Source: a virus (taxonomy: Duplodnaviria; Caudoviricetes). From it: DNA of 64,000 bases. The stretch lies in the IMG/VR virus record IMGVR_UViG_3300029288_000002, positions 64,001 through 128,000 of that record; one strand, given 5' to 3'. The position numbers and the translations under genes are program-made. The notes below the pieces were generated by a model. It did not search any database and was not told the origin of the DNA. It saw only the letters and a program-made list of their open reading frames with translations. Every line of letters begins with the position of its first letter. The stretch's first letter is position 1. Positions 3,146-56,148 of this stretch are shown here, one piece after another.

Positions 3146-3325
3146 ACCCCCACACACAACAAAAAAGAGACTCTAACCAGTCTCTTTTTTAGTACCTGCA
3201 AATAGAACAAAATTTCTATCACGCAGGTACTACACCAGGATGACAATTAGAACATTTGTACCCTTTACAGGTGGTAAAAATCGAGTAAAATAAAGGTACA
3301 ATCTTTTTAGTCATGGAGTTTTACA

Positions 3326-3496: not shown

Positions 3497-3702
3497 TAGA
3501 TTATACCTGCTACCACAAAAAAACGAGAGTCTGCCGGTCAGACTCTCGTTTTTTGTTGCTTCTCTGTGTCCTATAAAATATGTAAAAACGGTGAGAATTT
3601 GACCAAGAATTAGTAACACCAAAACGCCAAAATCGTGTATAATCAATATCGTAGCAAGTTGAGAGCGGAAACGCTCCAAACCAACAACTTGCGGAGGAAA
3701 AA

Positions 3703-3906
3703 ATGGCAGTGAAATTTTACGGCAAACAGCAGGAAGAATACGAGTCAATTTGCGCACAATTGCGCGAAATTGAAGAAGAAGTAGAACGCGAATATATACC
3801 GCCAACAGTTGCACAAAACCTTAAAAATTTTGTGCGCAATAACGTTGTTAGTGTATACGCACGCTCTATCCTACTTCACATCGAATTATTTTTTCGTAAT
3901 TTGTAA
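3703..3906 (+). CDS. Hypothetical early protein
   Basis: RBS GGAGG; terminator at ~3925-3956. Confidence 0.75.
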   Translation: MAVKFYGKQQEEYESICAQLREIEEEVEREYIPPTVAQNLKNFVRNNVVSVYARSILLHIELFFRNL

Positions 3907-4100
3907 ATAATTTTTATTATTTTTAAACCGCTATCCCTACCAGATAGCGGTTTTTGTTGTCTTAAAGTGTCCTATAAAACAACGATTTTACGGCTGGTCG
4001 GTAAACTATCCTATAAAATGGTAATTTTAGGTATAATTTGTCATATTTGTAGGTATAAAAATACCCCAGGTGGCAATCACCTGGGGTATAGTATACAAGA

Positions 4101-4316
4101 CTAAAGATAATTACGTGCATATTCGAGATCATTATCTGTAATAATGATCTCGCGGCGGGCGTTCCACACGCGCAAGCGAGGAAGGTCAACCAATTCGCCG
4201 TTTTCGTCAATTTTTGACGAAACGTTTAGATTCAAGGGTTCGTAAAAACGCGGCGTAAAGTGTAACACTTTGCATACCTTACGCGCTGTAGACGAAAGAA
4301 AATTTGCAGTAAACAT
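4101..4316 (-). CDS. Hypothetical protein; only convincing minus-strand gene
   Basis: Minus-strand RBS AAAGGA before ATG; hairpin ATACCCCAGGTG..CACCTGGGGTAT (4061-4089) downstream. Confidence 0.65.
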   Translation of the reverse strand: MFTANFLSSTARKVCKVLHFTPRFYEPLNLNVSSKIDENGELVDLPRLRVWNARREIIITDNDLEYARNYL

Positions 4317-4576
4317 TTTACAATTCCTTTTTTCAAAATTTCAGAATATCATCATATACCAGTATAGCCTTTTTTTATTGCCAAAAAATGACTTTCTAAA
4401 AACGATAGAAATTATACCTGGTGAAACCTACTTAAAGATAGTACGTAGATAAAAATTACCTTTTATGTCTGAAAACTGGTAGGAATAACTCCCTACCAGT
4501 TTTATTTTACCTATTGACAAAATAAGGATGATCGGTTAAGATGATAGCATACTCCGATTACAAAGGAATTACAGCA

Positions 4577-33546: not shown

Positions 33547-34114
33547 TTTTAATGAAAACTATAAGAAAGGATGCGAAGTTGAAAATTTCATAAAGAAAAT
33601 ATATAAGGGAAAGAACGCTTCGTTTATTGCTGGCAACAATGGCGAGAATGTTGTAAACATTAATCTTATTGAACGAATATATCATTGCAAGTATGTGCCA
33701 CCAGGATATGACGAGTTTGAGCAACACAATTTTGGGCCGCGCTTAGACTTTAACGGCTTAAAAATTACTATGCCTGACTTGTTATTCAACAGCAGAACCG
33801 ATAATGTGTTTTGGGTAGAATGTAAATCTTCCCGAAATACTAATTTTCACACAATAGATGTTGCCGAAAAAGACATTCTTGATTATAGAGAAATCGAGAA
33901 TAGAGGATGTTGTAAGGTGTGGATGGCGTTGTGCTTTATTGATACTAATATGAATAAGGCAACAATCAAGGTTGCAAAAATTAGCGAAATTATAGGATTT
34001 GTTAAATTTAAATCTCAAGAATCTTTTTTTAATCGCTATTATAACGAAAACGTATATAGAATTGATCCTGATTGGAGTATATTTCAATACTTATATGTTG
34101 GCGAATATCCTTGA
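33536..34114 (+). CDS. PD-(D/E)xK nuclease-like protein, family B
   Basis: GCEVE..., MPDLL...FWVECKS. Confidence 0.7.
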   Translation: MPNNFNENYKKGCEVENFIKKIYKGKNASFIAGNNGENVVNINLIERIYHCKYVPPGYDEFEQHNFGPRLDFNGLKITMPDLLFNSRTDNVFWVECKSSRNTNFHTIDVAEKDILDYREIENRGCCKVWMALCFIDTNMNKATIKVAKISEIIGFVKFKSQESFFNRYYNENVYRIDPDWSIFQYLYVGEYP

Positions 34115-34220
34115 CACATATACTGTTTGTAGTATAATTGAATTATAACTTAAACAAGGTTGTATAAACTGGCGACAGTAAATACAATCCTTATGAGGGC
34201 ATGAAAAAATAGTTAGTAAT

Positions 34221-34293
34221 GCTGTAGTAGCTCAACAGTAGAGCAAATGCTTTTGTATACATTTAGTTCAAAGTTCAAATCTCTGCTACAGCT
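34221..34293 (+). tRNA. tRNA-like gene / pseudo-tRNA, anticodon ambiguous
   Basis: GCTGTAG/CTACAGC acceptor, GCTC/GAGC D stem, GTTCAAAT T loop; anticodon loop expanded to 10 nt (CTTTTGTATA). Confidence 0.6.
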
Positions 34294-37801: not shown

Positions 37802-38146
37802 ATGAGTGATAGTAGACATTTAGCGACAGTGCAAAAGATTGTAAATATTAGTCCTATTCCTGGGGGAGATAGGATTCAGCTAACCAAAGTTTTAGGATGG
37901 CAATGTGTAACGAATAAGAAAGATAATTTTAAAGTGGGAGACCTCGTAGTATACTTTGAAATTGATTCGCAGTTGCCTGCTAAACCAGAATTTGAGTTTT
38001 TAAAAGATGTAAAATATCGTATCAAAACACGAAAGTTTTTGAAAACCGTTAGCATGGGGCTAATTATGCCATTGAGCATTCTTAAAAATTATGGCGAGTT
38101 GAAATATGATAATGACGGTAATATAATAGGAATAAGAGTTGAATGA
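37802..38146 (+). CDS. RNA ligase (DRB0094/Rnl2-like), N-terminal fragment
   Basis: LATVQKI..I.PI...DRI....VLGWQ...FKVGDLVVYFEIDS.LP..PEFEFL...RIKT....SMGL. Confidence 0.85.
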   Translation: MSDSRHLATVQKIVNISPIPGGDRIQLTKVLGWQCVTNKKDNFKVGDLVVYFEIDSQLPAKPEFEFLKDVKYRIKTRKFLKTVSMGLIMPLSILKNYGELKYDNDGNIIGIRVE

Positions 38147-39164
38147 GAAAAATACTAAGAAAAGTTGAATTGGATCAATACATTTTTATAATGGAGAAAT
38201 ATAATGCAGGAAACACTCTTGATAAAATAGCAAAAGAATACAAGGTTTCTGATGTGACAATTAGCAGAATATTAAAAACTATGGGTGTAAAAGTAAAAAA
38301 TCGTAAAGAACACGATTATAAAAACGACCCCGTTTTTACTGAAATTTGTGAAAACTATTTACAAGGAGTAAGTATAAAAATATTAGCTGAGAAATATAAT
38401 TTGAAAAAACATATTATAGTAACATGTCTAAAGTATAGACAAATTAAATCACGAAAAAGAGAGGATGCAAGAAAATATAAAATAAAGGAAAACTATTTTG
38501 ATAAAATTGACTCTCCTATTAAATCTTACTTTCTGGGTTTTTTGTTTGCAGACGGTTGTAATGCAAACAGCCAAATTTCAATAAATTTAAAATCGGAAGA
38601 TTCCTATATATTAGAGTATTTAAGCAAAGAAGTTTTTATATCAAATAGACCGGTTGCTTTTTTCGATAAATACTCAAAAGAAACAAACAAAAAATATCCT
38701 CGGTGTAGATTAAACATATGTAATAAGAAAATATCCGAAGACTTGTTAAAAAAGGGTATGTGTGAAAGAAAATCTCTAATATTAAAATATCCTATAGATT
38801 TACCGGATTGCTATTTTTGGGATTTTTTACGTGGATATTTTGATGGCGATGGATGCGTTAGAGTTATAAAACCAAAATACGGAATAACCAAAGTAACATT
38901 TTCGATAGTGGGGACATATGATTTTTTATATAGTGTTTCTGAGAAAATAAAACAACTTATATATGCTTGAAGTATCCAATTGCGATTTATAAAAGTAAAA
39001 CCTCAAAAATATTAGAACTGCGAATTATAGCAAAAGAAGATGTTTTAAAAATATACAAATGTATGTATGAAAACGCAGAATTGTTTTTAAAAAGAAAATT
39101 TGAAAAATTTGACATTGTTTATAAAGGAAAGGAACTGCAAAATGAAAACCTACTTAGAACTTAA
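38143..39164 (+). pseudogene. LAGLIDADG homing endonuclease with N-terminal HTH repeats, frameshifted near 38960
   Basis: YFLGFLFADG and FLRGYFDGDG motifs; C-terminal ..LKRKFEKF continues in another frame after TATATAT (38958-38964). Confidence 0.85.
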
Positions 39165-39990
39165 AGAAGGCGTTTTTTTGGACGACATTATTGGCGTAAC
39201 CAAATATGATCCCGAAGGCGAAGCAGAAGCTAAAATGTATGCGCAAAAGGAGAAGATTGCTAAAAATAGATTGGAGAAATACTTATTTAGCCAAAAGTGG
39301 TACAGAGTATTATTGTGTAAGATTACAGGCGAAAAACAAAGAGGCTTTCCAAAATTTATTTCTCGCTCGGACGAAATTAGAATCCAAAACTTAGGGGACT
39401 CGTTTTGTCAAAAAGAAAAAGACACCGCTTTTACAGCTTGCTCAAAAATAGATGGGCAGAGTTTAACAGCAGCACTAATGAAAAACCCCAACCGCCTTGC
39501 ACGTTTATTTGGTAATCCTTATATCTTTATCCTTTGCTCTCGTAACCTGAAATTAGGAAAATATGATCCTAACAACAATTATTGGAAAATGGCAAAGAAG
39601 TATGACTTAGAAAACAAACTAAAACTTCTTATTGGTAATAATGATTGGGTAGCAGTACAAGGTGAGTCCGTAGGAGTTGGTATTCAAGAAAACAAATATA
39701 AACTAACTGATAACCGACTATATATTTTCAACCTTATTTATCCCTCTGGCAGAGTAGATGACAAAACGTTTCGACCAAAATTGGAAGAAATGGGTTTACC
39801 TTGTGTCCCGCTATACAGTTATGATTTTCATTTGGGCAATACTGTGGCTGAAAGCGTAGAAAAGGTAACGGGATTAACCGGTGGTTTTGTAGAAGGGATT
39901 ATGGACGAAGGGGTTGTTGTGCGTGACTACAGTCGTGATATTAGCTTCAAAATTATCAATCCGTTATTCCTATTGAAGCACAATCTCTAA
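39142..39990 (+). CDS. RNA ligase (DRB0094/Rnl2-like), C-terminal catalytic fragment
   Basis: GVTKYDP, FPKFI..SDE.RIQN, KIDG (motif I), CSRN, VQGE..G.GIQ.N.Y, EGVV, SFKIIN..FLL; own RBS AAGGA. Confidence 0.9.
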   Translation: MKTYLELKEGVFLDDIIGVTKYDPEGEAEAKMYAQKEKIAKNRLEKYLFSQKWYRVLLCKITGEKQRGFPKFISRSDEIRIQNLGDSFCQKEKDTAFTACSKIDGQSLTAALMKNPNRLARLFGNPYIFILCSRNLKLGKYDPNNNYWKMAKKYDLENKLKLLIGNNDWVAVQGESVGVGIQENKYKLTDNRLYIFNLIYPSGRVDDKTFRPKLEEMGLPCVPLYSYDFHLGNTVAESVEKVTGLTGGFVEGIMDEGVVVRDYSRDISFKIINPLFLLKHNL

Positions 39991-51051: not shown

Positions 51052-51507
51052 TCAAAAGGAGTAATTATGTCAGTATGGTATTCTTGCAGTGGTAATCATT
51101 TACCAAAAGGCACATTTGATGTAGAAATCAGGTTGTGTTATGGCGGCAACTTAGATAACAATATTATAACAGGTTATTACAATGGGCGTGCCTGGTATAA
51201 TGATGAATACTGCTATACTAAAATTGAAAATCCTATTTGCTGGAGATATAAATAAACTAAAATAATTAGGATTATACTAATCTAAATTATTTTAGCGTGC
51301 AAAGGAGTTATATGAAAATTTGCTGTAATGAGAGATGCAAAGAATTATACGATGACATTTTTACGCTTCATGTTATTTGTTGCCCTATATTTAATGAAAT
51401 GCTAATAAATCGTGGTTATTCCTGTTGGTTAGATAAAGACATAAAAGATTTATACTTTAGCAATGGGGAATATAGAGAGTATGAGGTTTATGAAAGGACA
51501 AATAACA

Positions 51508-52416
51508 ATGGACAATGATATTTTGAGGTTGATTGCAATTCAAACAAAAGACTGTGTATATGTTTCCAATGACCTAATGGGAAATGGTTATTGTTATGAA
51601 AGTGGGAATAAACTATTGAGTTGTCGGTTTGACGGGAAATCGCCAAAAAAGACATATCACGGTCAATGGTTTATTTTAGATAATATTCCTGCTGTAGTAG
51701 AATATAAGCACGCAGAAGGTTATATAAACTATAGATTAGAATTAAAGCCAGAAGTTGTTGATGCAGTTGTAAATTTGCCTAAAGTAATAAACTCTCGATA
51801 TTTAGATGAGGATTGTGCAGAATACAACTTTAGAGGGTTATACGAAGAGCGATACGATACTACACCTGAATATTGGGAAGAGATACCTTTTCAAATTAAC
51901 ATCTTAGATTCACTTGATGATTTTTCTATAACTAAAAAAGAGTATGAATTTACAACATCGTTGTTAGATAAAATTAAATATCACCCAATCCTTTTGCCTA
52001 CAAAACCTTGCTCTATGAGTAGCAAAGACTCTTATAATGTTATTAGAGATTATGTAAGAACTCATATTGACAATAATTATGCTAAAATCGTTACAAATGA
52101 AAGTAATCACTTTAAAGTAGAAAAGATTATAGAAACAGATACTCCAGAAGCATATCGAGTGGAAATTAACAAGGGTTACAGAAAGAAATCCAAATGGGAA
52201 ACTTGTTATCGCAAAATAAGAAGTGCTGAAATGTTGAATATATCGCCAAATAACGATTCTTGGGCAAAAGAAAAGGTTTATTTGTTTTCAGGTATAAATT
52301 ATAATGATATGATTGCAAACATGAACGCTTATTTAGAAAGCCTAATGCTTCAAATAAATAAGCCTCTTTGTGATTGTCCAACTTGCAAAGGATATGGAGT
52401 TATAGAAAAAGAATAA
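51508..52416 (+). CDS. Conserved phage protein with C-terminal CxxCxGxG zinc finger
   Basis: CPTCKGYG; RBS AAAGGA. Confidence 0.8.
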   Translation: MDNDILRLIAIQTKDCVYVSNDLMGNGYCYESGNKLLSCRFDGKSPKKTYHGQWFILDNIPAVVEYKHAEGYINYRLELKPEVVDAVVNLPKVINSRYLDEDCAEYNFRGLYEERYDTTPEYWEEIPFQINILDSLDDFSITKKEYEFTTSLLDKIKYHPILLPTKPCSMSSKDSYNVIRDYVRTHIDNNYAKIVTNESNHFKVEKIIETDTPEAYRVEINKGYRKKSKWETCYRKIRSAEMLNISPNNDSWAKEKVYLFSGINYNDMIANMNAYLESLMLQINKPLCDCPTCKGYGVIEKE

Positions 52417-54458: not shown

Positions 54459-54527
54459 AGCGGGTTGCGAATGGTACGCCATTGGTCTCATACGCCAATC
54501 TAAACAGTCCGAGTCTGTTACCCACTA
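54459..54527 (+). tRNA. tRNA-Met or Ile2 (CAT), atypical
   Basis: Anticodon arm TTGGT-CTCATAC-GCCAA; T arm AACAG-TCCGAGT-CTGTT; acceptor AGCGGGT/ACCCACT with one mismatch. Confidence 0.7.
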
Positions 54528-54590
54528 CTTATCAGCAATAGAATATAGATATGCGGCTTGTACGGTAATCTCTATTGCTGATATTATAAT

Positions 54591-54663
54591 GCCTTATTAG
54601 CTCATTCAGTAGAGCAACGCCCTTTTAAGGCGGAGGCGGTTGGGGCAGAGCCAATATAAGGCA
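54591..54663 (+). tRNA. trnK: tRNA-Lys (TTT)
   Basis: Acceptor GCCTTAT/ATAAGGC; D stem GCTC/GAGC; anticodon loop CTTTTAA; atypical T loop GGCAGAG. Confidence 0.8.
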
Positions 54664-54665
54664 CT

Positions 54666-54760
54666 GCCAGTTTAAATATATCTATTGTTTAGCCGACAGT
54701 CTGCTCTCGATAGTTCGCTACGCCTAAGCATATACAATAGATTAATCGAATTAAACTGGT
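54666..54760 (+). ncRNA. Rod-like hairpin RNA between tRNAs
   Basis: CCAGTTTAA/TTAAACTGG and ATCTATTGT/ACAATAGAT nested stems. Confidence 0.45.
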
Positions 54761-54826
54761 AAACATTATAACTCGGCGGCATTGGTAGTCATTATTAGAC
54801 TATAACATTGCAGCATACCGCCAAAT

Positions 54827-54912
54827 GGAGAGTTGGCAGAGTTCGGTTGAATGCACTCGTTTGCTAAACGAGACCCCGAAAGGGGTCACAGGTTCAAATC
54901 CTGTACTCTCCG
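54827..54912 (+). tRNA. trnS: tRNA-Ser (GCT)
   Basis: GGAGAGT/ACTCTCC acceptor; CTCGT-TTGCTAA-ACGAG; long variable arm ACCCC-GAAA-GGGGT; GGTTCAAATCC. Confidence 0.95.
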
Positions 54913-54961
54913 CTAAAAAGCAATATGACAATATTGCATATTATCACAAGGAGAATTTCAA

Positions 54962-55600
54962 ATGTCAAAACTCAATATTAGTGTTGCTGAGGGTTTAGCC
55001 CTATTGAAAAAGTATGATGATCGTATCGAAAAGGCACGCCAAAAAGGTTTGCTTGGTACGGTAAAGGTAGATCAGACTGTTGCCAATGGAAAGCCTATTT
55101 CCGAAATGATTGATGAAATGAAGGCTAATTTTCAATCGTTGAATCATTTGTTTAGCAATAAGAAAGCTGTAAAAGATGCACTTACGAAAAGTAACGGCGA
55201 AACGGTTGTTACTATTGCTGGCGAAGAGTTAACTGTTGCAGAGGCTATTGAACGTAAGAAATGGATTGCTTCACGTAAGGAGTTTTTGAATCTTATGGCT
55301 CTCACCTATAATTCTCTCAATAATACTGTTACTTCAACTAACAATAAGGTTGATGAAGGGTTTGATAGCTACTTGACTACTGTTCCTGGTGCAAAGGAAA
55401 AGACGGTATCACAAGAAACCATTGATATGTACCGCGTAGCTTATCAAAAGAGCAAGTATATCAAATTGGTTGATCCAAACAACATTGGTAAGGTGATTGA
55501 ACAGTGGAATAAGGAAGTTGAAGATTTTGAAACCACTGTAGATTTCACATTGTCGCGCAGTAATGCTTTGACAATGATTGATGTTGAGTTAGAAGATTAA
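54962..55600 (+). CDS. Helical coiled-coil protein resembling the DIP1984-like ('septicolysin'-annotated) family
   Basis: VAEGLALLK..DDRI, SN..T.VTIAGEELTVAEAIERK, DFTLSRSNALTMI motifs. Confidence 0.7.
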   Translation: MSKLNISVAEGLALLKKYDDRIEKARQKGLLGTVKVDQTVANGKPISEMIDEMKANFQSLNHLFSNKKAVKDALTKSNGETVVTIAGEELTVAEAIERKKWIASRKEFLNLMALTYNSLNNTVTSTNNKVDEGFDSYLTTVPGAKEKTVSQETIDMYRVAYQKSKYIKLVDPNNIGKVIEQWNKEVEDFETTVDFTLSRSNALTMIDVELED

Positions 55601-55611
55601 TAAAAGTTATA

Positions 55612-56035
55612 CTGTAGGAATTACAGAATTTTAAGCCTGTGGAGATTGTGTAAGACTCTTCGGAGCAACTGTCTATGAAACAGGAAGTTACTAAGGTAAC
55701 AATTCAAGACTAAATAAGTAACATTGTGGTTATTTGAAAATATAAACACTTGACCCTTTGGCGATGAGGGTTATCATCGCCACTAATTTGATTATATCAA
55801 ATAACTGATTGAACTTGAAATTCAATCCCTTCTTTGGCTGCATTGCCAATGTGTGCGGAAACCGTACAAAAAAGTCAAAGATCAAAGGTTAAAGATTAAA
55901 AATCAAAGTTTAAAGTTTAAATTGTTAAAGATTACTTATTACAGTTTACGGTTTATAGTTAATACAAATCTTTGAACAACGGTTAAGGTACTTCAAGTAT
56001 GACCGCAGATTCCCGCAAAGCTGAATAATCACAAC
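55612..56035 (+). ncRNA. Large structured ncRNA candidate with 12 x 7-nt repeat tract
   Basis: At least 8 local hairpins (UUCG and GAAA loops), two long-range pairings, no ORF, ends at a terminator. Confidence 0.7.
55874..55958 (+). repeat. Tandem degenerate heptamers, consensus (G/A/T)TYAAAG
   Basis: GTCAAAG ATCAAAG GTTAAAG ATTAAAA ATCAAAG TTTAAAG TTTAAAT (T)GTTAAAG ATTACTT ATTACAG TTTACGG TTTATAG. Confidence 0.8.
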
Positions 56036-56037
56036 CA

Positions 56038-56065
56038 AGAACCTGAGTAAAATCAGGTTCTTTTT
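56038..56065 (+). terminator. Intrinsic terminator
   Basis: AGAACCTGA-GTAAAA-TCAGGTTCT-TTTT. Confidence 0.85.
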
Positions 56066-56148
56066 ATTTTGCCTATTGACAAATCGGCAATAGTATGCTA
56101 AACTACACATATCGAATAAATAGTAGTTATTTCTATAAGGAGACAGAA

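Follow-up and report, generated by a model that had tools for sequence, protein, structure and literature searches.

Does the long gene-free stretch that follows a small protein gene in a large phage genome encode a structured RNA, and does this RNA act together with the protein? We addressed this question in a 64,000-nucleotide (nt) stretch of viral DNA (Duplodnaviria; Caudoviricetes), hereafter the window, which covers positions 64,001 to 128,000 of the IMG/VR record IMGVR_UViG_3300029288_000002, a complete virus record of 165,307 bp with direct terminal repeats. In the window, a 212-amino-acid (aa) protein encoded at 54962-55600 on the plus strand is followed by a region, 55601 to 56094, whose longest open reading frame (ORF) is at most 54 aa. 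A first, sequence-only reading had proposed that the gene and the region behind it form one module, made of a helical protein and a large structured non-coding RNA (ncRNA) with a tract of 7-nt repeats. The module is real. A structured plus-strand RNA with a conserved fold exists and is strictly linked to the gene, which belongs to the family phrog_1491: the RNA lies on the same strand just 3' of the gene in 93 of 93 phage loci bearing the protein, and a model of its 3' domain (R1, described below) matched at the expected place in 67 of 80 bacterial loci.

The conserved core of the RNA spans 55724-56034 on the plus strand, about 310 nt (280-420 nt across the family). The elements of the locus are as follows.

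54962-55600, plus strand: gene of the 212-aa helical protein (ORF; phrog_1491, homologue of T5 ORF080).
55601-55722, plus strand: leader from the stop codon to the RNA core, 122 nt with four small hairpins, lineage-specific.
55724-55734, plus strand: 5' strand of the closing helix P1, UUGUGGUUAUU, pairing with 56024-56034.
55735-55747, plus strand: junction motif, UGAAAAUAUAAAC, with the family consensus YGAAAAY..UAAAC.
55752-55782, plus strand: H-type pseudoknot, GACCC at 55752-55756 with GGGUU at 55768-55772, inside the H1 loop (55768-55773).
55759-55767 with 55774-55782, plus strand: hairpin H1, which carries the pseudoknot loop.
55786-55803, 55808-55827, 55835-55849 and 55852-55868, plus strand: four variable hairpins (sequence and minimum-free-energy fold).
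55869-55960, plus strand: heptamer array, about 13 units of 7 nt, about nine of them U-Y-A-A-A-G-N, then UUAC/UUAU-type units.
55965-56023, plus strand: 3' domain, with a CAAAUC box, a helix, an inner hairpin and GCUG.
55970-55974 (CUUUG) with 56016-56020 (CAAAG), plus strand: 3' helix, from covariation.
55980-56005, plus strand: inner hairpin of the 3' domain, seen by eye; the model alignment shifts its register between clades.
56020-56023, plus strand: invariant GCUG, directly 5' of the P1 3' strand.
56024-56034, plus strand: P1 3' strand, AAUAAUCACAA, pairing with 55724-55734.
56037-56068 (hairpin 56037-56062), plus strand: intrinsic terminator with a 10-bp stem, a 6-nt loop and a T run.

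Much of this layout had been anticipated. Every hairpin listed in the sequence-only reading is present in the sequence, and the ORF-free stretch ends, as described, at a clean terminator. The structured RNA had been placed 11 nt past the stop codon; the RNA is there, but its conserved core begins only at 55724, and the leader, which includes the CTC-TTCG-GAG and GTTAC/GTAAC hairpins, has no counterpart in the other loci compared. The distance from the stop codon to the core is shorter in the hand-inspected relatives (16-69 nt for loci L005-L012), and the hairpins at 55786-55868 vary in number and sequence among loci. Twelve heptamers had been counted at 55874-55958. A period-7 tract does occupy this region, and Tandem Repeats Finder (TRF) reports period 7 at 55871-55934 (8.1 copies) and at 55939-55960 (3.1 copies), which amounts to about nine units of the form U-Y-A-A-A-G-N and three to four UUAC/UUAU-type units, close to the original count. 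Two crossing long-range pairings had been proposed to close the RNA as a pseudoknot. One of them, TTGTGGTTATT with AATAATCACAA (~55724 with ~56024), turned out to be the closing helix P1 of the whole family, and in the window it abuts YGAA on the 5' side and GCUG on the 3' side, as in the family. The other, AGCCTGTGGAGATTGT with GCAGATTCCCGCAAAGCT (~55634 with ~56005), is not supported; its CAAAG at 56016-56020 pairs with CTTTG at 55970-55974 by covariation. The RNA does contain a pseudoknot, formed not by crossing long-range pairings but by GACCC (55752-55756) and the loop of H1. When compared with shuffled sequences, the region folds with z = -4.1 on the plus strand and z = -4.35 on the minus strand; since both strands fold equally well, folding energy alone cannot assign the strand.

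The evidence for the fold comes from comparison among loci. Related loci were gathered with a profile of 14 homologues, which reached 3509 clusters at 50% identity and 2564 clusters at 90% identity; a query with the single protein returned none. Directly 3' of the gene, each of the eight annotated phages inspected has 365-830 nt in which no coding sequence (CDS) is credible, and four metagenome contigs with the closest proteins likewise lack a credible CDS there. The 650 nt past the stop codon in 13 loci show one shared order: YGAAAAY..UAAAC, hairpins, a YUYAAAG tract, an AAAAUC box and a GGCUG box. The AAAAUC and GGCUG boxes are 53-58 nt apart in these loci, and the four flanking bases are complementary in a locus-specific manner. 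From the 13 loci, the window included, we built R1, a covariance model of the 3' domain with 76 positions; on the window, which is thus one of its seeds, it scores 54.9 bits (55957-56030, E 1.5e-9). R1 matched 77 of 80 further IMG/VR loci picked by the protein alone, on the plus strand every time, and in the three R1-negative phage loci the RNA was present on inspection by eye. The 3' domain starts 199-587 nt after the stop codon (median 280; 81 distinct loci), and its 5-bp helix is 99.4% paired, with 96 double-change cells (0/500 shuffles; slid controls 11-51%). Inspection of the 500 nt downstream of homologues, which had been suggested as a check, therefore revealed what had been predicted, conserved heptamers and covarying stems. 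A second, weak R1 match in the window, of 18 bits at 34096-34169, corresponds to a sigma-70 promoter where an ORF ends and not to another copy of the RNA.

The 5' strand of P1 was searched for as the best upstream complement of the 12 nt after GCUG, and the junction motif was not used in the search. The site found in this way abuts YGA[AC] in 54 of 64 distinct loci, compared with 78 of 640 in the null, and the own-locus score exceeded the 95th percentile of the scores obtained with the strands of other loci in 84% of loci. We consider the abutment a fairer test of P1 than the pairing in A4, our alignment of 42 non-redundant full-length RNAs, which a sequence entered only with a P1 score of at least 18. 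In A4, pairing in P1 and the 3' helix together amounts to 98.2%, with double changes in 290 cells (0/500 shuffles; slid controls 29-47%), all 12 P1 pairs covary and 98% of the P1 cells are paired, the P1 figures being inflated because the 5' strand was found by complementarity and then filtered. G-U pairs are common in P1 (GU 18, UG 13 and GU 8 at three positions); read from the opposite strand, they would become A-C mismatches, implying that the plus-strand RNA is the functional molecule.

The pseudoknot and the array are also properties of the family. Three to six loop bases of the first hairpin complement bases just 5' of the hairpin family-wide, with an own-locus score of 9.94 versus 7.48 +/- 0.42 for permuted loci (0/2000), and the pair types vary (CCC:GGG, CGT:ACG, CCTG:CAGG, TCCG:CGGA, GGC:GCC and ACCUCG:CGAGGU). 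In 48% of cases across the family, an A(2+)G site follows the previous one by 6-8 nt, versus 8% in shuffles. The array unit is U-Y-A-A-A-G-N, each RNA has 7.8 sites on average, and the units are in register across the 42 non-redundant RNAs. We considered the heptamers as a complement of the anticodon loop of the transfer RNA (tRNA) tRNA-Lys(UUU), which would be UUAAAAG, and rejected this because the consensus UYAAAGN mismatches it.

The RNA had been called undescribed, which holds only in part. The suggested Rfam scan, at the gathering threshold and at E up to 10, gave no match inside the window RNA, RF03100 included, and the ROOL, GOLLD, OLE, tmRNA, RNase P, 6S and Y RNA models gave none within the RNA in the window and 37 related loci. 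On the minus strand, ncr1015 matches 56031-56121 with 35 bits, below its threshold of 60, and this match covers the terminator only. The word undescribed fails for the first 86 nt of one sub-branch of the family, which is RAGATH-27 (RF03100), an orphan 'sRNA' (small RNA) model of 86 positions with one annotated hairpin. RF03100 aligns with the initial 84-86 nt of the RNA in L002 (77.2 bits), L031 (67.7 bits) and L054 (46.6 bits), and each match begins exactly at the P1 5' strand; with a gathering threshold of 76.1 bits, it is above threshold in one of 37 distinct loci, and the other 34 loci have no match. The CGAAAAC..UAAAC junction and the first hairpin of the family are part of its consensus, but the model spans less than a third of the RNA and shows the P1 strand as unpaired; the pseudoknot, the heptamer array and the 3' domain are all absent from it. 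The window itself carries a RAGATH-27-type stretch at 55735-55782, namely UGAAAAUAUAAAC and hairpin H1, aligned in A4 with the RAGATH-27-positive loci. In the literature searched we found neither the term RAGATH-27 nor any account of this RNA or of an ncRNA at this site in T5, and RAGATH motifs go unmentioned in the main text of their source paper (PMC5737381). Another RAGATH motif, RAGATH-18, was found to yield the guide RNA of IS607 TnpB nucleases (PMC11061315).

How far does the pair extend beyond the window? It occurs in T5 and its relatives, in Bastille-like Bacillus phages (Bastillevirinae), Pseudomonas Otagovirus, phages of Vibrio and Klebsiella, Lactococcus 949-like phages and C. difficile phages, and in the chromosomes of Lysinibacillus, the Bacillus pumilus group and Brevibacillus. 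By tblastn, the protein is in 743 phage records in all, those of these phage groups (the T5-like ones from Salmonella and Escherichia) and of Erwinia and Aeromonas phages included, every one below 40% identity to the window copy; blastn of the region against phages returned no close relative, the phage of the window being a singleton at the DNA level. In T5, the RNA is located at AY587007 43064-43414, behind ORF080, with the promoter T5P23 next, 3' of the RNA. Identity over the RNA reaches at least 93% in 438-440 T5-like records, and in almost all of the 440 the region is unannotated (GenBank). Bacterial chromosomes with the protein belong to Lysinibacillus, Solibacillus, Exiguobacterium, the B. 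pumilus and B. licheniformis groups, Brevibacillus, Paenibacillus and some Clostridia, and the neighboring genes are ordinary (a major facilitator superfamily transporter, an amino-acid permease, a subtilase, a two-component hybrid). In L158 (Brevibacillus fortis), a gene for an AbiEii-type nucleotidyltransferase toxin (3660-4556) is located ~1 kb downstream of the module, in this one genome only. L155, a Parabacteroides metagenome-assembled genome (MAG), has R1 matches at 2839-2915 and 3201-3273 in tandem behind one protein gene, which may be a duplicated RNA. A contig with the MAG label Candidatus Bathyarchaeia (L164) holds the protein and an R1 match of 38.7 bits and could be a virus, a contamination or a real archaeal copy. 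No RNA copy without the gene was seen, in a search that is insensitive: in three RNA-bearing bacterial genomes, the whole-genome search with R1 gave no match, as a 76-position model is too weak at genome scale.

Terminator-like hairpins, read by eye, follow the RNA in L001, L004, L007, L010, L011 and L096, and in the last of these, a Lysinibacillus locus, the order reads, again by eye, as promoter-like hexamers, gene, RNA and terminator-like hairpin. Of 81 distinct phage loci, 13 have a tRNA no more than 200 nt downstream of the RNA, in five of them only 7-12 nt away, so that processing by the tRNA machinery is plausible in some lineages; a tRNA within 200 nt upstream of the gene is present in 12 of the 81. 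The sequence-only reading had connected the module with tRNAs and RNA repair. There are tRNAs upstream of the gene and an RNA ligase in the window, but tRNAs are close in fewer than half of the phage loci and in only six of 80 bacterial loci, and the link is one of context. In related phages, further orphan or mobile RNAs are found beside the module (L059 1142-1229; L057 1079-1136 and 2576-2639; L054 2646-2853; L020 418-645), including skipping-rope RNA (63 bits), YrlA-like partial matches and group I intron-like matches; the module resides in RNA islands.

What kind of protein precedes the RNA? The window protein aligns with PHROG 1491 along its whole length (E 4e-51; residues 5-209 on profile positions 4-210 of 211), and Pfam, NCBIfam and PDB sequence searches with it were all without a match; among the best 120 of the 2564 profile-matched 90%-identity clusters, none has a Pfam domain. 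PHROG labels the family 'tail fiber protein', a name that is not credible because the T5 homologue, ORF080, belongs to the operon of the putative early promoter T5P24. Nearly all of the bacterial homologues looked up (Lysinibacillus, Brevibacillus) are named 'hypothetical'. The AlphaFold 2 (AF2) model (pLDDT 75.6) is mostly helical, with long helices and short strands, in agreement with the original description. Oligomer modeling, a further suggested check, was performed with two copies and predicted a homodimer: the co-fold reached an ipSAE of 0.71 versus 0.00 for the best control, with at least 97% contact agreement over three runs and a partner pLDDT of 91. In the calibration, the mark was reached by 20 of 30 true homo-pairs and one of 23 single chains. 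The model supports, but does not prove, that the phrog_1491 protein forms a homodimer.

The fold offered few leads. Foldseek on the PDB gave no functional lead for the window protein, the best match of the VIA wide fold search was to SNARE-type helical bundles (Z 8.2), a level that helical models reach as noise, and the BFVD search returned uncharacterized viral proteins only, without a functional lead, with weak Mimiviridae matches at E 0.02. A resemblance to the DIP1984-like family (DUF6847) had been proposed, and any such resemblance is weak: Foldseek ranks 3kdq (3kdq_C) second, with a probability of 0.47 and TM 0.27/0.36, and Atlas clusters with DUF6847 in 10-16% of their members reach TM 0.56-0.70. 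It is not borne out by Pfam, where PF20935 (cut-off 27 bits) does not match the window protein at E up to 10 and scores best among the relatives on P0016 (13.7 bits, E 0.06). The DUF6847 proteins are also shorter, ~150 aa versus ~210 aa for phrog_1491 proteins.

How might the RNA and the protein work together? The reading that we favor, tentatively and at slightly less than an even chance, is that the window holds one copy of a widespread gene-plus-RNA module whose two parts share a transcript and assemble into a ribonucleoprotein (RNP), the heptamers being occupied by protein dimers. The gene and the RNA are probably transcribed together, as suggested by the Lysinibacillus layout, the T5P24 early operon and the tRNAs 7-12 nt after the RNA, all of which point to a single transcription unit. 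The RNA would be released or stabilized by the terminator in the window phage, and by tRNA processing where a tRNA adjoins. It would then assemble with the protein made from the same transcript into an RNP, the folded core serving as a nucleation or scaffold site and protein dimers taking successive heptamer units. That an RNP forms at all we infer from the synteny and the single transcription unit; that dimers read the heptamers is speculation, for which we have only the predicted dimer and the parallels with TRAP, HutP, CsrA-CsrB and the T4 gene 32 operator. The module stands alone among housekeeping genes in Bacillales, which makes a general role in RNA metabolism or translation seem likelier than a purely anti-defense role. 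With more reserve still, we suggest that T5-like phages, many other large phages and Bacillales might share a new RNP class, in which a pseudoknotted core positions 7-nt units to be read by a dimer or a subunit, and which would act on a universal process such as tRNA or ribosome function or RNA turnover.

Several observations weigh against an RNP. Synteny alone would also be compatible with a cis-acting 3' untranslated region (UTR) or with simple co-expression. No recognizable RNA-binding domain was found in the protein by domain and fold searches, and the family is mildly acidic (median isoelectric point 5.7, net charge -2). Thirteen of the 80 bacterial loci have no R1 match at E up to 0.1 in the model scan alone, and the P1 figures of A4 carry the upward bias described above.

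The strongest alternative is that the RNA works without the neighboring protein, either self-assembling like ROOL, GOLLD or OLE or soaking up a universal host factor through its A-rich array, so that the gene would be linked to it only by co-expression or a common pathway. We regard this as unlikely, though it deserves serious weight. An acidic protein without an RNA-binding domain would fit it, as would the location of the module in RNA islands beside tRNAs, skipping-rope RNA, YrlA-like and group I intron matches; an array motif identical in phages of Gram-positive and Gram-negative hosts would suit a universal partner. ROOL and GOLLD are themselves phage RNAs near tRNAs and are reported to form RNA-only complexes (PMC12286853). 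However, order, strand and close spacing of gene and RNA are kept across distant phages and bacteria, which is tighter than co-expression requires, and a gene-free copy of the RNA was not seen by the insensitive search.

Less probable again is that the structured region is part of the protein's mRNA, a cis-acting 3' UTR that confers stability or self-repression, and not an independent RNA. In favor of this, the RNA invariably lies 3' of this one gene and on its strand, the Lysinibacillus layout looks by eye like a single transcription unit, and a pseudoknot beside unstructured A/U-rich repeats recalls the T4 gene 32 operator. We nevertheless consider it improbable, because a P1-closed core of 280-420 nt with conserved junctions and a separate 3' domain exceeds what known stability elements or operators need, and because the element follows the stop codon and does not cover a ribosome-binding site. 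Moreover, a tRNA ~10 nt after the RNA would cut it free in several loci, and the C. difficile phage LIBA2945 has a terminator-like hairpin (by eye) between gene and RNA. Finally, that the region acts as DNA (a replication origin, iterons, a packaging or protein-binding site, with the repeats as duplex-DNA binding sites) is hardly credible: the AT-rich direct-repeat tract has a 21-bp super-period (TRF) and the minus strand folds as well as the plus strand, but compensatory changes keep three separate helices, many G-U pairs are valid on the plus strand only, a terminator or tRNA follows the element, and in bacterial chromosomes it is a single copy among housekeeping genes.

The surroundings of the module in the window place it next to tRNA genes, as listed here.

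54459-54913, plus strand: tRNA cluster upstream of the gene (ARAGORN and Rfam).
54459-54528, plus strand: tRNA-Met (ARAGORN/Rfam).
54591-54663, plus strand: tRNA (Rfam 45 bits; not called by ARAGORN).
54827-54913, plus strand: tRNA-Ser(GCT) (ARAGORN/Rfam).

The identical tRNA-Met/tRNA-Ser(gct) pair lies 5' of the homologous gene in LIBA2945. A further tRNA in the window, at 34221-34293 on the plus strand (Rfam tRNA 49.5 bits), is given a four-base anticodon (ttgt) without amino-acid assignment by ARAGORN, and may be a frameshift-suppressor-like or decoy tRNA. Upstream of the cluster, a 317-aa ORF at 51463-52416 on the plus strand is a full-length homologue of Gad1 (Gabija anti-defense 1; PF25705, E 1e-71), implying that the module sits in an early, counter-defense part of the genome. 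The RNA ligase seems to be split into a PHA02142 OB-fold part at 37802-38146 and a PF09414 RNA-ligase part at 39100-39990, both on the plus strand, with a LAGLIDADG-type ORF at 38143-38970 between them; the ligase escaped a six-frame family search of the whole genome.

The module matters for several reasons. The classic model phage T5 carries, unannotated, a conserved 300-400-nt RNA that combines a pseudoknot with a unique heptamer array and has its own dedicated protein neighbor, and Rfam holds only a fragment that misses most family members. Large structured RNAs of unknown function are rare and have repeatedly been a source of new biology. The system is amenable to direct testing in T5/E. 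coli and in genetically tractable Bacillales.

To which known systems can the module be compared? Type III toxin-antitoxin systems (ToxIN-like) have tandem repeats of ~34-36 nt upstream of an endoribonuclease toxin gene, and here the repeats are 7 nt long and downstream of the gene. In the T4 gene 32 operator, a pseudoknot and UUAAA/UAAA repeats serve autogenous repression. TRAP is an 11-mer ring of beta-sandwich subunits that binds (G/U)AG triplets spaced by 2-3 nt, HutP is a hexamer that binds UAG repeats at a 7-nt period, and the targets of both are operon 5' leaders. The likeness, which we use as a working analogy, is in short purine-rich motifs at regular short spacing, single-stranded and read by an oligomer. 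A ring binding one heptamer per subunit, as in TRAP, had been suggested. Unlike TRAP, the protein here is mildly acidic and modeled as mostly helical and, from two copies, as a dimer, its candidate motif is UYAAAG at ~7 nt rather than a closely spaced triplet, and the array is inside a large folded RNA 3' of the gene. CsrB/RsmZ offer another parallel, in that many copies of a short motif on one RNA could hold several dimers of a small protein such as CsrA/RsmE; the Csr motifs are GGA in hairpin loops, the small RNA and protein genes are unlinked, and a P1-closed pseudoknotted core is absent there. With ROOL, GOLLD and OLE, the RNA shares large size, a high degree of structure and a poorly known function; ROOL and GOLLD likewise adjoin phage tRNAs, and OLE RNA has dedicated protein partners. 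From all three it is set apart by its smaller size (280-420 nt), its unique heptamer array and its strict synteny with one protein family.

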